A stretch of DNA of 64,000 nt from Candidatus Riflebacteria bacterium HGW-Riflebacteria-1. GTDB taxonomy: Bacteria > Muiribacteriota > Ozemobacteria > Ozemobacterales > Ozemobacteraceae. The stretch's first letter is position 1. Every line of letters starts with the position of its first letter. Below the pieces are notes generated by a model. The model had not been told where the DNA came from. It did no database searches and saw only the letters and a program-made list of their open reading frames with translations. Both the position numbers and the translations under genes were made by a program. The stretch spans positions 1-64,000 of the forward strand of contig PGYB01000006.1 of the NCBI GenBank assembly GCA_002839445.1, written 5' to 3'. Positions 1 through 47,506 of the stretch are shown here, piece after piece.

Positions 1-20
1 TGCCCGCCTACGCCCTTGTA
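1..20. repeat. Short dispersed motif TGCCCGCCTACGCCCTTGT, copy 1 of 3. Related copies lie at 251-270 and 24253-24272.
   Basis: The near-identical 19-20 nt string occurs three times, always in intergenic DNA. Flanks share further blocks: GGCTCTCGG and CGCTTCAACT. Confidence 0.45.
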
Positions 21-250
21 ACGTTTTCTATCAATGACAACTTTTAGACACAGTTCTTAAGGAGTTAGCTATACAATTCAAATGTGCCAGAGGACTAGTG
101 CTTTGTCAATAAGGATTCGGCCTTGGCATACTGCATACTCGGGCTCTCGGCAGGATACCAACGCTTCAACTCTCACCAGGCGTTAGTTTCTGCTAATAGG
201 AGTGGCCTGGTGTCAACATTGCCTGGCTCGAAGTTTACGCTTATGGTATG

Positions 251-270
251 CCTGCCTACGCCCTTAGTGT
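251..270. repeat. Short dispersed motif TGCCTGCCTACGCCCTTAGT, copy 2 of 3.
   Basis: Matches 1-20 and 24253-24272 with 2-3 mismatches. The upstream flank cttatggtatgcc parallels cttaaaatgcc at 24243. Confidence 0.45.
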
Positions 271-373
271 CGTTTTTAACAGCGCCTGTTTATCTTCAAT
301 TTATCTACAAGTTCAACTTTGACAGACCACTAATCATTTCGCTTTTCTCAATAACACTTTTGGTGTTGCATAA

Positions 374-7453: not shown

Positions 7454-8914
7454 ATGACTAAGAGCAATAACTTTTTTTATAAATCGGTTCGGGTGGCTGC
7501 GGCCTGTGCTATTGCGATTTCAACGCTGTTTTCGCCGGTTGAAGCCAGGGTCAGAAACTTTGCCTCGGCAAAGGATGTGCAAAGTCTGAAGTTCTTAAGC
7601 GCCAACCACATGCCGGTCAAGGTGCTGGTTGTTTACTCTCCAAACCAGAAAAACCAGAATTTTGTTATCACACTGATGAATATTGTGGCTGATATGCATG
7701 ATAAGGGCCTGGTAAAGCAGGAAGACGCCTTCAAGGTGCATGTTATTCCCGGTTGGGAAATGCAGGAAGCCGATTACGCATTTATTCGCGAAAAAGTAGG
7801 CGCTGAGCGGGTTAAGAAGTATGTTGAATTTAACAACGTCTATACCACAACCGATATGTGGATGCAGGACTGGGGCGAAGTTGGCGTGGTTAAGCTGAAA
7901 AGTGAAAAGAAGCCGCAGACCGTGGTTTTTGACTCAAATCGTGGTCGTGACAATGCTGAATTACCGGGAATTCTCGCGAGTTTCTGGAATAGTTACCTGC
8001 TGAAAAACCCCTCGACACATTTTTCCGGTGGCGATTACGGCGGAAATATCGAGGTTACCCCCGACAACATTTTATTGATCGGCAACACTTCTACTCCTGA
8101 ATTGCGTGGCTTTCTGGAGAAAAATGGTTATAAGAATCGCATGGCGGTTCTCGAAACCGACTGGTTGCATGTTGGCCATGTTGATGAATACATTTCGGTT
8201 TGTCCAAATGCCAAGGCTGCTCGTGGCTATACGCTGATTAAAGCTAACCCGAGACTTGCTCTCAGGTTGATTAAAGATTCTTCCCTTGCAGATTTGCGGG
8301 CAATTCCGCTTAAAGATTACCGCGATGCGATGATCGAGGTGCGCAAATACCTTCTTAAAGCCGAAGTTAATCGAGCCGCCCAAAAAAAACGCAAGAATAA
8401 TGAAGCTTTGCCTGAAGATCAGAAATTTGGAGTTGCCGTGTTGAATTACCTCGAATTATCGGAAACTACCAGTGAATCAGGTATGGAACTGGCAACCGGC
8501 CACATGGTAAGAGGTTCTGAAGTTGAAGAATTTATCAAACTTAACCTTACTCTTGCCAATCTGATTGATGCCAACCTCAAAAAGGCCTGCGAAAAGATTT
8601 CTGAAGTGCGCAAGGAAAAGGAAGGCAAGCTTCATTCGATTATCTCGTTTCCGGCGCTGTTTCGCGCCATGTATGGCGGCAAACATATTGCATACATTCC
8701 TGGCAGCGTTAATCAGCTGATCTTGAACAACCAGCTTATCGTTCCGGATCCTAAAATAGAAATCATGCGGAAGTATATTGCCCGCACACTCGGCAAGATG
8801 GGGCTCCAGGCTAATTTTGTCGACTCGCTGCCTTATCATAATCTCCAGGGCCAGATTCATTGCGGCACCAACGTTTTCAGACACCCCAACAAGTATTTTG
8901 TAAAGCCTCGGTAA
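7454..8914 (+). CDS. Secreted guanidino-group modifying enzyme, porphyromonas-type peptidylarginine deiminase / agmatine deiminase-like, 486 aa.
   Basis: Signal peptide (VRVAAACAIAISTLFSPVEA). WMQDWGEV matches the WxRDxGP block. FSGGDYGGNIEVTPDNILLIGNTS matches EGGSI..DG.GTLL. The C-terminal GQIHCGTNV matches the catalytic Cys motif GGIHCITQQ of the PAD_porph/AguA family. RBS GAGGAG. Confidence 0.55.
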   Translation: MTKSNNFFYKSVRVAAACAIAISTLFSPVEARVRNFASAKDVQSLKFLSANHMPVKVLVVYSPNQKNQNFVITLMNIVADMHDKGLVKQEDAFKVHVIPGWEMQEADYAFIREKVGAERVKKYVEFNNVYTTTDMWMQDWGEVGVVKLKSEKKPQTVVFDSNRGRDNAELPGILASFWNSYLLKNPSTHFSGGDYGGNIEVTPDNILLIGNTSTPELRGFLEKNGYKNRMAVLETDWLHVGHVDEYISVCPNAKAARGYTLIKANPRLALRLIKDSSLADLRAIPLKDYRDAMIEVRKYLLKAEVNRAAQKKRKNNEALPEDQKFGVAVLNYLELSETTSESGMELATGHMVRGSEVEEFIKLNLTLANLIDANLKKACEKISEVRKEKEGKLHSIISFPALFRAMYGGKHIAYIPGSVNQLILNNQLIVPDPKIEIMRKYIARTLGKMGLQANFVDSLPYHNLQGQIHCGTNVFRHPNKYFVKPR

Positions 8915-8945
8915 CTGCATATATCAACAGGGTGACGCAATAGAA

Positions 8946-8990
8946 ACCCGCAGCTCACTGGCTTATAGCCGAAGAGTTGCGGGTTTTGTT
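8946..8990 (+). terminator. Rho-independent terminator after the PAD-like gene.
   Basis: 11-bp stem ACCCGCAGCTC/GAGTTGCGGGT with an inner mini-hairpin, followed by TTTTG. Confidence 0.5.
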
Positions 8991-9180
8991 AATTGCTGGT
9001 CCTTTGTCAACATTGAATAGATGAATTCACGGTCGTTGCGGGGAGGACTTTTGTCGCTACGCTCCTCGCGAAGACCATGGATGGTCAAGTGCCGGTGAGC
9101 ATCAGGATTGAAGCGAACCGACCAATGACGGTTTGCAAACCTGCTGTTCAAGTGTGACAGTCGACTAGTCGGGCGAAGAA
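8975..9180 (-). repeat. Conserved noncoding element of about 200 nt, copy A. Inverted relative to copy B at 29700-29900.
   Basis: The 55-nt core GTCATTGGTCGGTTCGCTTCAATCCTGATGCTCACCGGCACTTGACCATCC (revcomp of 9071-9125) is identical to 29756-29810 except one base. Flanks are 60-75% similar, with an indel. Short ORFs over the two copies (8963-9151 and 29744-29977) share only the core peptide and then diverge, so the conservation is at DNA/RNA level. Confidence 0.6.
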
Positions 9181-18551: not shown

Positions 18552-18833
18552 TTATTCCTCCAACAGATACAAGATTAAACAAGTATACGCATATAGACTT
18601 CAGTCTGCAATAGTCAGACGATAGCCGATCTGGCAAACGTTCAGCCGTGCTCAAAGCTGGTTTCATGGTGAATTTATCAGTGTTATTGAGTAATCGCATG
18701 CAATCTCATCGCGCGGTAATTGGCCGTTTCGTTTGCGGGAAAGGGATTTCGAATTTGCCTGCCAGTCGCATGTTTGCGAGCTGCATGTATTTACAGTCCA
18801 CAGAATGTTGACGTCTTGGCTGTAACTTCGTTC

Positions 18834-18919
18834 GTTGAAACTTTGCCAGTAACTTACTGCAGGTTTACATAACTCGATAAGTTGAAACTTTGCCAGCAAC
18901 TTACTGCAGGTTTACATAA
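18834..18919. repeat. Tandem direct repeat of 2 x 39 bp with a 47-bp period, ending in the ...CAGGTTTACATAA motif. The same motif also starts the dif-like site downstream.
   Basis: GTTGAAACTTTGCCAG[T/C]AACTTACTGCAGGTTTACATAA occurs at 18834-18872 and again at 18881-18919. A third GGTTTACATAA occurs at 18953. Confidence 0.7.
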
Positions 18920-20135: not shown

Positions 20136-21824
20136 TTATATTTTACGTGACGTAATGCGATCTTCGTCACTGTTTACGACAACTTCATTTTCAAGAACTT
20201 CTACTAATACCGGCTCGTAGTCTTGATGAAATACTTCAACAAGCCCCTTGGAAGGTTCTTGATTATCACCAACACAGCAACCTTCAAGTATTAACCCTTT
20301 ATCTACAATTTCAACAAGACCAAGCTCAGGATTGCATTCAGTTTCAGGCTTAATAACGCCCTTCTCAACGATACAAGCAATACCACGATCGCCACAAACG
20401 AGACTATCAGCAATAAGCTGTAATTTTGCCTCAATAGACATGTATTCTAACTCCTGAATTAAACAATCTTGGCCATTAAGACCGTCAACACCGTCTTGAC
20501 CATCAATACCAGGCAAACCGGTATCACCTTTATCGCCTTTAACACCTTGTAAACCTTGAACACCCTGTATACCTTGTATTCCTTGTGAGCCAGTATCACC
20601 TTTTTCGCCCTGAATACCCTGTATACCTTGTGGACCTTGAGCACCTTCTTGACCTTCCCACCCTACGCCTGGCTCGCCCTGTATACCTTGTATTCCTTGT
20701 GCGCCTTGTGAACCAGTTGCACCAGTATCACCCTTTACACCTTGGATACCCTGAACTCCCTGATCGCCAGTATCACCTTTATCACCCTTATCACCTTTAT
20801 CACCCTTATCACCTTTCTCACCCTTTACACCCTCAGTTGCACCAGAACGTATATTGAGAATCAAAGAATAAAGATTCTGTATCTGAACGCGCAAAGCATC
20901 ACAATCACAATCATTATCATTAGGTGGTGGTGGCTGAACACCTCCATCACGAGGAGTATCATCAGCATCAGCATCACAACAAACATCACCAGTATCTGAA
21001 AAGCCTGTAACCGACATATAGAGCGTTGTAAAGCGCTCAATATAGACATTTGTAAGACTTATACCAATACAAGATATCTCAGCAAAATCTTTACACTCAG
21101 AACAACTGGCAGTTGCAAAATTAACATCCTCAGAAAAACCATTACCAGCACCGATTATCAAACCGCCCATACCACCTGCAGGAATGGTATATTTACGTGC
21201 ACCTATCTGAACAACACCGTTTTTACTACTGCCTGATAAAGCTCTAAAAGAAACTCTATCGATAGTTTTCCATGCAGACAAAATACCATTAAGAGCATTT
21301 TGATCTGATAACCAATAATCACCAGCAGAAGGAATAACTATATCCTGAAAAAAAGTAACTTGTTTATTAAGAATATCAGTGCCAGTGATAGCTATACGGT
21401 AATTATCGGTATAAAACCGACTATCAGCACAAGTATTGAAAGCTGAAAACGCAAGAGTAATACTCGGATTAGATTTGTTCGGCTGACCAAAATCTACCCA
21501 ATTGACATCATCAAGAACCTTTGCAGATGTTATAGGATTAGAAAAATTGCTTGTAACATAATAAGCATATAAATCAGGCACACAAGAAGAAAATAAAGCC
21601 CAGTTTGTTACAGATGCAGAGTTAAGCTTAAGCTCAAACTTAGTAACACTCTTTAGGCGACTCATTGAAGCACTACCTTGTGCTGATTGAATAGCGCAAT
21701 ATCCTATTGAATTATCGTAATAAACACGCAATAGCAGCCATGAAGGATATGCAGTAACAACAGGAGGATTTGCAGCTTCTGTTATACGCACATCAAATTT
21801 AAGTTCTTTGAAAGAAATGGCCAT
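20136..21824 (-). CDS. Collagen-like triple-helix repeat protein of 562 aa: N-terminal globular domain, about 110 aa of GXY repeats, and a C-terminal domain.
   Basis: There are uninterrupted Gly-X-Y triplets (GEKGDKGDKGDKGDKGDTGDQGVQGIQGVKGDTGATGSQGAQGIQGIQGEPG...GLPGIDGQDGVDGLNGQ). The layout resembles phage tail-fibre or BclA-like collagenous proteins. TAATG overlap with the upstream peptidase gene. Confidence 0.8.
   Translation of the reverse strand: MAISFKELKFDVRITEAANPPVVTAYPSWLLLRVYYDNSIGYCAIQSAQGSASMSRLKSVTKFELKLNSASVTNWALFSSCVPDLYAYYVTSNFSNPITSAKVLDDVNWVDFGQPNKSNPSITLAFSAFNTCADSRFYTDNYRIAITGTDILNKQVTFFQDIVIPSAGDYWLSDQNALNGILSAWKTIDRVSFRALSGSSKNGVVQIGARKYTIPAGGMGGLIIGAGNGFSEDVNFATASCSECKDFAEISCIGISLTNVYIERFTTLYMSVTGFSDTGDVCCDADADDTPRDGGVQPPPPNDNDCDCDALRVQIQNLYSLILNIRSGATEGVKGEKGDKGDKGDKGDKGDTGDQGVQGIQGVKGDTGATGSQGAQGIQGIQGEPGVGWEGQEGAQGPQGIQGIQGEKGDTGSQGIQGIQGVQGLQGVKGDKGDTGLPGIDGQDGVDGLNGQDCLIQELEYMSIEAKLQLIADSLVCGDRGIACIVEKGVIKPETECNPELGLVEIVDKGLILEGCCVGDNQEPSKGLVEVFHQDYEPVLVEVLENEVVVNSDEDRITSRKI
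20771..20822. repeat. Tandem 18-bp (9+9) repeat inside the collagen-like gene.
   Basis: TCACCCTTATCACCTTTA is repeated about 3 times, encoding (GDK)n. Confidence 0.7.
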
Positions 21825-29699: not shown

Positions 29700-29900
29700 C
29701 TACTTATTTCGTTCGCAACTACTCCTTTGTCACATTTGAATACATGCTTAAAAATAGTCATTGGTCGGTTCGCTTCAATCCTGATGCTCACCGGCACTTG
29801 ACCATCCGTGGTCAAAAAGCCAGCTCTGAGCTAATCCCTTTGCCAATGAGATTGCTTCGTCGGACTGAAGTCCTCCTCGCAATGACCGCGAATCCGACTA
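29700..29900 (+). repeat. Conserved noncoding element of about 200 nt, copy B (see copy A at 8975-9180).
   Basis: The 55-nt core at 29756-29810 is near-identical to the reverse complement of 9071-9125. It lies about 140 nt upstream of the small Cys-protein gene at 30043. Confidence 0.6.
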
Positions 29901-30042
29901 CTCGATGTTTTGGCAGAGGACTAGCGCATCCTGCACGTCGTAACCGTTGTTGCTGGCTATTAGTGTTTTTGCTCTAAACTTTTTGCGGGTAGATGCCGAT
30001 ATATGTTTAGAGAATTTAAATTTCAAGCAGGAGGTGCTTCAT

Positions 30043-30192
30043 ATGTGTGCTCAGGAACTCGTGGCTCTGTTTCGTTTCTCTGGTAATTCGTGCCCGGCAT
30101 GCCAGCGTATTGTCAGCAGGTATGAACGCACCCTTAATCTGACCGACGACGACATGGAGCACCTTGAACAGTGCATTCTCAGCAAGCCATGA
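30043..30192 (+). CDS. Small Cys-containing protein of 49 aa (CxxC plus 2 more Cys).
   Basis: Canonical RBS AGGAGG 9 nt before the ATG. MCAQELVALFRFSGNSCPACQRIVSRYERTLNLTDDDMEHLEQCILSKP. A strong terminator lies immediately downstream. Confidence 0.4.
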   Translation: MCAQELVALFRFSGNSCPACQRIVSRYERTLNLTDDDMEHLEQCILSKP

Positions 30193-37217: not shown

Positions 37218-37359
37218 GACTGGCTCCTTGTCATTTTTGTCATTGCGAGCGAAGCGAACCGACCAGTGACGGATTTTGCAAAGCTGCTGAGTGCTTGACA
37301 GGCGGTTGTTTTCTCTGTTAAGGTCATTACTCACATATGTTTGAAGCGGAGTTTTTCAA

Positions 37360-47259: not shown

Positions 47260-47506
47260 GTGTGCTGAGTAATATCTGATCCGATTGAGGATCATGTGCA
47301 GTATGCGACTTTATTGAGATCAGCTCAGAGCTGGCTTTTTGGCCAAGGATGGCCTTATACATTTGCGCAACGGGAATGGTGCGCAAATGTGCCGTCTTCG
47401 GCATACTGCTTCGTCACTTTATTCCTCGCAATGACGGACTTAGAGCCGTTTTGTCGTTGTGAGCAAGCAATGTCAAATACAGGAATATTGTGTGTCGTTC
47501 TAATGC

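Follow-up and report, generated by a model that had tools for sequence, protein, structure and literature searches.

The window analyzed here is a stretch of 64,000 nt of Riflebacteria DNA in which a short non-coding element is present in two copies, A and B, in opposite orientations. Copy A lies in a convergent gap between a gene for a PAD-type protein-arginine deiminase (7454-8914, plus strand) and a gene for a 479-aa protein (9165-10604, minus strand), as the earlier note on this DNA had described. Copy B was correctly placed as well: it is upstream of a gene for a 49-aa CxxC protein that starts at 30043 on the plus strand and is preceded by AGGAGG. The gap around copy B is divergent, and the neighbor on the other side is a NeuC-like epimerase gene (28470-29642/29675, minus strand).

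Some other features of the window are recorded here for their own sake. A major-vault-protein-like gene (MVP_shoulder, Vault_3) at 11273-13777 on the plus strand is close to the PAD-type gene, and this arrangement is kept in several Riflebacteria contigs. The major-vault-protein and PAD families are mainly eukaryotic. Positions 20517-20846, inside an ORF at 20136-21824 on the minus strand, have a strong 9-nt periodicity with 14 overlapping copies of a 54-nt repeat, which fits a collagen-like Gly-X-Y region on that strand. The intergenic stretch 18823-18916 consists of two tandem 47-nt units that are 87% identical (TAACT..GTTGAAACTTTGCCAG.AACTTACTGCAGGTTTACA). The 479-aa protein is identical (100%) to one from Candidatus Riflebacteria bacterium HGW-Riflebacteria-1, and the window contig recurs in several metagenomes.

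Copies A and B were recovered by a repeat search of the window as inverted-repeat arms at 9073-9143 and 29743-29813 (71 nt, 90% complementary). In a pairwise alignment, 9073-9129 and the reverse complement of 29757-29813 are identical at 56 of 57 positions. The segment 9079-9109 recurs exactly on the minus strand at 29777-29807, and 9110-9129 does so at 29757-29776, with 0 matches in 100 shuffles. The inverted match claimed earlier is therefore real, but the pairing of 9071-9125 with 29756-29810 is 5 nt off in copy B: it gives 40 mismatches as written and 3 when shifted by +5. The flanks are similar with an indel, as had been proposed; the indel measures 33 nt, and the terminal repeats of A and B agree at 26 of 36 positions on the left and 23 of 36 on the right. 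The limits first given for the element, 8975-9180, had to be corrected to 8999-9165. The element had also been thought to occur just twice, and partial relatives are present at 37220-37305 and 47318-47440. The features are as follows.

1..330, plus strand: tandem pair belonging to a second MITE family, at 1-95 (truncated by the start of the window) and 98-330, with IS630-type ends.
8999..9165, plus strand: putative MITE copy A, 167 nt, complete, its limits set by the terminal repeats and by end-to-end alignment with B.
8999..9034, plus strand: left terminal inverted repeat of A (GTCCTTTGTCAACATTGAAT...), its first 20 nt equal to the right end of an insertion sequence (IS).
9035..9069, plus strand: degenerate inner palindromic arm of A (..GTTGCGGGGAGG...CTCCTCGC), a hairpin in the predicted fold.
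9070..9123, plus strand: 54-nt core insert (GAAGACCATGGATGGTCAAGTGCCGGTGAGCATCAGGATTGAAGCGAACCGACC), between CTCCTCGC and AATGAC.
9130..9165, plus strand: right terminal inverted repeat of A (..TTTGCAAACCTGCTGTTCAAGTGTGACAGTCGAC), which in reverse complement aligns with the remaining termini and the ends of the IS.
9166..9167, no strand: TA target duplication of A, forming with base 9165 the TAG stop of the gene at 9165-10604 (minus strand).
29722..29921, minus strand: putative MITE copy B, 200 nt, complete, with the near-identical core block at 29757-29813.
37220..37305, plus strand: copy C, an internally deleted relative; left boundary approximate, right terminal repeat kept.
47318..47440, plus strand: fragment D, a mosaic built of inner modules, with no terminal repeats.

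The terminal inverted repeats of A and B are imperfect and about 36 nt long. Read inward, the termini of A, B, C and two related loci, L019 and L009, align over ~35 nt, and those of A, B, L019 and L009 give the consensus (G/C)TCCTTTGTCA(A/C)ATTTGAAT.... When the two 20-nt end sequences of the IS were searched against the window with up to 5 mismatches, they matched at 8 places (9 pattern matches), whereas shuffled sequences gave 0-3. Both full copies are small, and their ORFs have no homolog or Pfam domain. In copy C, positions 37239-37277 carry GTCATTGCGAG fused directly to the final 20 nt of the core region, and an A-like tail comes next; the core-region remnant, GAAGCGAACCGACCAGTGAC, is at 37251-37270 with 1 mismatch. 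Fragment D has AGCTCAGAGCTGGCTTTTTGGCCAAGGATGGCC in common with copy B and ends in CCTCGCAATGACGG. These two relatives indicate that the repeat is assembled from interchangeable short palindromic modules.

The second MITE family at the start of the window is unrelated to the A/B family but has the same ends. A TA lies between its two copies (96-97) and another after them (331-332), so that one TA is common to both copies and the copy at 98-330 is flanked TA/TA. Its interior, CGGGCTCTCGGC...CAACTCTCACCAG...TTGCCTGGCTCGAAGTTT, is kept, and a homolog adjoins the IS in locus L139. The window thus holds at least four relatives beyond A and B, for a total of six related elements in 64 kb.

Target-site duplications had been suggested as a check for a MITE, and they are found as TA/TA around copy B and TG/TA around copy A. 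Copy B is bordered by an intact TA at 29720-29721 and at 29922-29923, and removal of the element together with one TA leaves gcgc-TA-gttg, that is, a CTAG target. Copy A has its TA at 9166-9167, and the other flank, 8997-8998, is now TG. For copy A an orthologous locus is available. A related Riflebacteria genome (L132/L133) has the same convergent pair of genes, with a homolog of the 479-aa protein that is 76% identical and the same terminator hairpin, and the ~167-nt element is absent from it. The empty site reads ...GAT TAG CAATTAAC... and the window reads ...GAC TA[G TCGAC ... AAAGGAC]CA GCAATTAAC.... The empty target is a CTAG that includes the stop codon of the 479-aa gene, and the comparison therefore places element A in the TA of that stop codon. 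The TAG stop was rebuilt because the first base of the element is G. The terminator-like hairpin at 8944-8986 is a separate structure that is kept in the orthologous locus without the element, and it lies outside the element.

Orthologs of the 479-aa gene end in ...GTCAACGCCGACAAAGGAC TAG (L211, 11454-11476) and ...ACCAAAGAT TAG (L132, 5441-5452). The L211 gene end is identical to the terminal repeat at 16 of 20 positions. Because these gene termini resemble the end of the element, the insertion boundary of A is ambiguous by 9-12 nt; the presence/absence result is untouched by this ambiguity. The resemblance could be due to chance, to a preferred target beside end-like sequence, or to an older repeat end that has become part of the coding region.

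The left end of copy A is identical at 20 of 20 positions to the right end of a 1,260-bp IS (blastn E 1.6e-7). In L019, ends of the A/B type bracket two ORFs that together make up one IS630-family transposase, with the Pfam domains HTH_32/HTH_23 and DDE_3 and matches to the NCBIfam IS630-family transposase model NF033545 at profile positions 1-107 and 128-299. A core-bearing MITE adjoins the IS in the same locus across a single shared TA. With the transposase as a handle, ten further copies of the IS were recovered. The 11 copies are in varied contexts, and each of the 11 is bordered by TA at both ends, in most cases as part of a CTAG. The matching IS was found in contigs of digester metagenomes, and such contigs also carry both MITE families. 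The 64-kb window itself contains no transposase gene. An origin of the MITE interior from the IS interior was considered and rejected, since in blastn comparisons the ends alone match. A tblastn match of the transposase to copy B (E 0.28) was dismissed as chance; a stop codon lies inside it.

The IS transposase is split in every copy examined (L019, 926-2150, minus strand; L138-L147) into an HTH ORF of 159-201 aa and a DDE_3 ORF of 211 aa, 16 nt apart. Most of the best 120 transposase homologs listed have a similar DDE-only length, ~205-230 aa. The pattern points to a two-part arrangement or to programmed frameshifting, not to decay.

Members of the IS630 family target TA, which is duplicated on insertion, and TA-specific cut-and-paste transposition has been demonstrated for ISY100 (PMC2170065). 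Copies A and B very probably belong to a family of non-autonomous MITEs with IS630/Tc1-mariner-type ends. This reading draws on what is observed directly, namely the anatomy, the TA flanks, the empty site, the identity of an end with that of an IS630-family IS, and the non-coding nature of the element. We infer that the A/B family was mobilized in trans. A transposase with an N-terminal helix-turn-helix and a DDE_3 catalytic domain would bind the ~36-nt terminal inverted repeats, excise the element and paste it into a TA, here within CTAG, with duplication of the TA. Copy A would have entered the TA of the TAG stop of the 479-aa gene, with the stop restored, and would now stand between that stop and the shared terminator hairpin; if transcription reaches the hairpin, the copy would be part of the 3' untranslated region of the gene. 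Copy B would have entered the promoter region from which the NeuC-like gene and the gene for the small CxxC protein diverge. The interior is not derived from the IS and is instead a mosaic of small palindromic modules. Decay of the terminal repeats and the mutated TA beside copy A make both copies look like old and probably immobile relics.

The earlier note had also allowed for a neutral segmental duplication; the rival considered here is such a duplication with two copies and no mobility. Just two full core copies are indeed present in the window. The terminal repeats and the ends held in common with an IS speak against such an event, as do copies at unrelated loci of other genomes and a divergence that is strongly uneven along the element. 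The empty site, the TA flanks (also those of the IS copies) and the IS end identity already refute it, and we give it virtually no chance.

One aspect of the MITE family is atypical. In MITEs the ends are usually the best conserved part, but the terminal repeats of A and B are 64-72% alike and the core is 98% alike. Core-bearing copies in other Riflebacteria assemblies are in different gene contexts and are sparse, with 1-2 exact matches per GTDB Riflebacteria genome. A search of the 10 kb flanking the window on each side, and of 43 kb from two other Riflebacteria, found no further core copies. Some core copies (L005/L006, L008/L010) lack one terminal repeat or both, and the core therefore also travels, or survives, independently of the MITE ends.

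The interior has a modular structure. Full-length copies (B, L019 and a further locus, L083) contain an internal inverted doublet that reads GTCATTGCGAGGAG...GACGAAGCAATCTC, spacer, GAGATTGCTTCGTCG...CTCCTCGC|AATGAC. The core is a 54-nt insert at the bar of CTCCTCGC|AATGAC in the right arm. A coreless arm in L136 is nearly identical to the core-bearing arm of L083 but is uninterrupted. The inner arm of A at 9035-9069 is equivalent to the GTCATTGCGAGGAG / CTCCTCGC arms of B, L019 and L083. Copies A and B differ at the left core edge, exactly at a small GACC..GGTC hairpin, and fragment D matches the left context of B as far as this hairpin and then diverges; these breakpoints indicate that modules have been exchanged there.

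In the inner scaffold a widespread 31-34-nt unit, GTCATTGCGAGGAGCG.AGCGACGAAGCAATC, forms an inverted doublet in which extra modules are nested. In the window the unit is present at 29853-29886 (minus strand), 37238-37249 (plus strand) and 47411-47436 (minus strand). Exact copies of the 31-mer TCATTGCGAGGAGCGNAGCGACGAAGCAATC are found in 62 IMG/VR contig stretches (L148-L209), which represent 60 distinct contexts. The host contigs have 37-70% GC, and G always precedes the 31-mer. In 25 of the 60 contexts an inverted partner follows 15-30 nt downstream, and some of these partners have other modules nested in them. No Rfam family corresponds to the unit, and no paper quoting it was found in the searchable literature, where searches with the repeat sequences returned unrelated primers only.

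Doublets of this kind, which copies B, L019 and L083 also possess, raise the question of whether the inner units and the core could instead be of the REP/REPIN kind, mobilized in single-stranded hairpin form by a tyrosine HUH transposase (RAYT/IS200-like), with the IS630-type ends as an incidental shell. The 15-30-nt spacers, the modules that are nested and recombine at a GGCC..GGCC hairpin, and the existence of core copies without IS630-type ends would fit. REPs are as a rule confined to one species, in which they number tens to hundreds. The 31-nt unit, however, is identical across contigs of 37-70% GC, is not lineage-specific, and is sparse in the window. The boundaries of A and B are clean, TA-flanked and of the IS630 type, and the empty site agrees with them. 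We regard a REP/REPIN-like origin as quite unlikely.

The distribution of the core was surveyed in genomes, metagenomes and viral contigs. In a scan of GTDB species genomes with the last 20 nt of the core region as the query, matches were restricted to Riflebacteria assemblies (HGW-Riflebacteria-2, Rifleibacterium amylolyticum and an uncultured MAG), apart from one chance match. When metagenomes were scanned with a pattern of 19 positions, 18 of them specified, 120 matches came back, of which 4 are real copies and the rest mostly chance. Three candidates, L115, L107 and L027, were rejected as look-alikes within coding sequences. A separate scan of viral contigs found no match to the core. Ten distinct core sequences were assembled, and 45 of the 57 columns of the core region are invariant across these 10 copies.

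One pair of these copies allows the rate of change to be compared with that of the surroundings. In HGW-Riflebacteria-2 (L008) and R. amylolyticum (L010) the element occupies orthologous positions ahead of a HAMP-cyclase gene. The flanking protein is 73% identical, as are the gene nucleotides (73%), and third codon positions are 53% identical; the surrounding intergenic DNA is 85% identical and the core is identical at 70 of 71 positions. At 85% identity, at least 70 matches in 71 have a probability of ~1e-4 by our own calculation. Judged from these comparisons, the core is more conserved than the neutral decay of a transposon relic would predict. Its near-constancy between genera is not simply youth. 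This excess identity, together with the small number of copies per genome, indicates that the core is kept by selection on the sequence or by conversion between copies. We infer that its constancy is due to something other than transposition, most likely sequence-level constraint or gene conversion among copies.

A core that is constant for its coding content would be one explanation: it would be a remnant or live piece of a protein-coding gene. As the earlier note had reported, the ORFs over copies A and B (62 aa, 8963-9151, minus strand; 77 aa, 29744-29977, plus strand) have the peptide HWSVRFNPDAHRHLTI in common and diverge beyond it; the other strand of the core would encode DGQVPVSIRIEANRPMT. 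Both reading frames are open in all 10 copies, and in L005/L006 the HWSVRF.. frame is read within a DNA methyltransferase ORF. The 62-aa ORF, however, has no homolog among 5.8 billion proteins, neither ORF has a Pfam match, and no start codon or ribosome-binding site is conserved. The ORFs diverge right outside the core. The variable core positions are not codon-like and alter amino acids (N/Y/P/F; P/S), and the earlier suggestion that selection works at the nucleotide level, not on a peptide, is supported. A protein-coding origin of the core is accordingly most improbable.

The methyltransferase case is of some interest in itself. In L005 (2249-4090, plus strand) and L006 (1-1427, minus strand) the core, two 31-nt units and CATCTGCGG-type repeats are in frame in an N6-DNA-methyltransferase/TaqI_C gene. 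The insert lies between motif I (DPACGDGSFL) and GFDIDL and adds ~60 residues, read as …GHWSVRFRPDAHRHSPIHGLREE…. The frame is kept in two genomes; L006 carries a further insert, and given its Ns and later stop codons this copy may be a pseudogene. The insertion is a tolerated in-frame repeat and does not speak for a conserved protein.

The genes downstream of the core bring a different possibility into view. In L008 (137-207), L010 (1276-1347) and L019 (2277-2348) the core is upstream of genes that encode HAMP and adenylate/guanylate-cyclase domains. The proteins are ~1000 aa or longer; those of L008 and L010 are orthologs, and that of L019 is 33% identical in the catalytic part. The core has the same orientation as the next gene in 7 of 9 loci and is 30-350 nt upstream of it, but when independent loci are counted the figure is 6 of 8, which is not significant. 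The core, with or without the arms, might then be a functional RNA, either a small RNA or a cis-acting leader, inside transposon-like repeats. The position before the HAMP-cyclase genes in all three loci is in keeping with this, as is the near-identity of the core in L008 and L010 despite gene and intergenic sequences that have diverged much further. The predicted folds are more stable than those of shuffled sequences (z -2.6 to -4.8). Stable folds are expected of any palindromic DNA.

Other evidence argues against an RNA. Neither the window as a whole nor any of 13 related loci matched Rfam 15 at the gathering score, and a search of both copies at E<=10 gave only chance-level matches far below threshold (RAGATH-31, permuted-tmRNA). 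Two hairpins can be drawn in the core, with too little variation for a firm reading: 11 of the 15 pairs never vary, and the remainder include one compensated pair, present in a single genome (A and B only), against ten cells in which the pair is broken. A scan of copy A for sigma-70 promoters and intrinsic terminators found none, the same scans of copy B gave two weak promoter-like matches at about shuffle level, and neither a promoter nor a terminator is conserved. Copy A is antisense to the sole gene able to read through it, and one core copy is in frame inside the methyltransferase gene. The earlier note had offered an sRNA, a cis-regulatory RNA and a MITE as readings of the repeat. The terminal repeats, TA flanks, empty site, additional copies and IS ends bear out the MITE, while the searches for an Rfam match, covariation, and a conserved promoter or terminator have so far given the RNA readings no backing. 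We consider an RNA function for the core rather doubtful, although conservation beyond that of a neutrally decaying relic leaves it some probability. Two specific motifs were also compared with the core by eye and set aside, a hammerhead (CUGAUGA...GAAA) and an IHF site (WATCAANNNNTTR); key positions misfit in both.

Within the MITE family with IS630-type ends, the conservation of the core may still reflect a host function. We put forward as a tentative possibility that the 54-nt core plus AATGAC is an exapted functional module, maintained by purifying selection in different Riflebacteria genera, with MITEs carrying or seeding it, and that the 31-nt unit may be an uncatalogued palindromic element with its own function or mobility. 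A protein-binding DNA site or a short RNA element could be the exapted entity. An interior that is better conserved than the ends, across genera with near-saturated synonymous sites, is the signature expected of host co-option. Either this pattern or the 31-nt unit, with its exact copies in contigs of 37-70% GC, could point the way to a genuine function.

The MITE family itself is new, and the kind of element is known and ordinary. For the candidate phylum Riflebacteria, where no description of mobile DNA was found, one MITE family with an IS630-type partner is added. The family explains spurious small ORFs and contig breaks in Riflebacteria assemblies, and copy A illustrates clearly how an element can insert into a CTAG stop codon and restore the stop.

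One close likeness is to RUP, the repeat unit of pneumococcus, which is also small and non-coding, has IS630-family terminal repeats, inserts at TA, is mobilized in trans, and tends to land beside or inside other mobile elements (PMC2229807). RUP was attributed to IS630-Spn1 on the same kind of evidence (PMC2229807). The two differ in that RUP is 107 bp long, is present in ~108 similar copies in one genome and has no known internal motif, whereas the Riflebacteria element is 167-200 nt long, of low copy number, with decayed ends, a mosaic interior and a core better conserved than the ends. The Correia or NEMIS elements of Neisseria are likewise TA-flanked MITEs with long terminal repeats that are adjacent to genes and form long hairpins when transcribed. 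They occur in long and short forms, of 155 bp and 107 bp, that differ by a 50-bp internal segment (PMC2229807), much as the Riflebacteria family occurs with and without the 54-nt core. The sequences are unrelated, and Correia elements have documented promoter boxes and an IHF site for which no equivalent was found here. To our knowledge no parent IS is known for Correia, whereas a parent-type IS has been identified for the Riflebacteria MITE. The inverted doublet of a short palindromic unit, the nested modules and their varying combinations recall REP, REPIN and BIME sequences, but REPs have neither terminal repeats nor target duplication and are lineage-specific, and the unit described here is present in very different genomes. 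The relative in L005/L006, in frame in a gene and read as an extra peptide, resembles the Rickettsia palindromic elements (RPE), from which the family differs in that copies A and B are intergenic and there is no sequence relationship.
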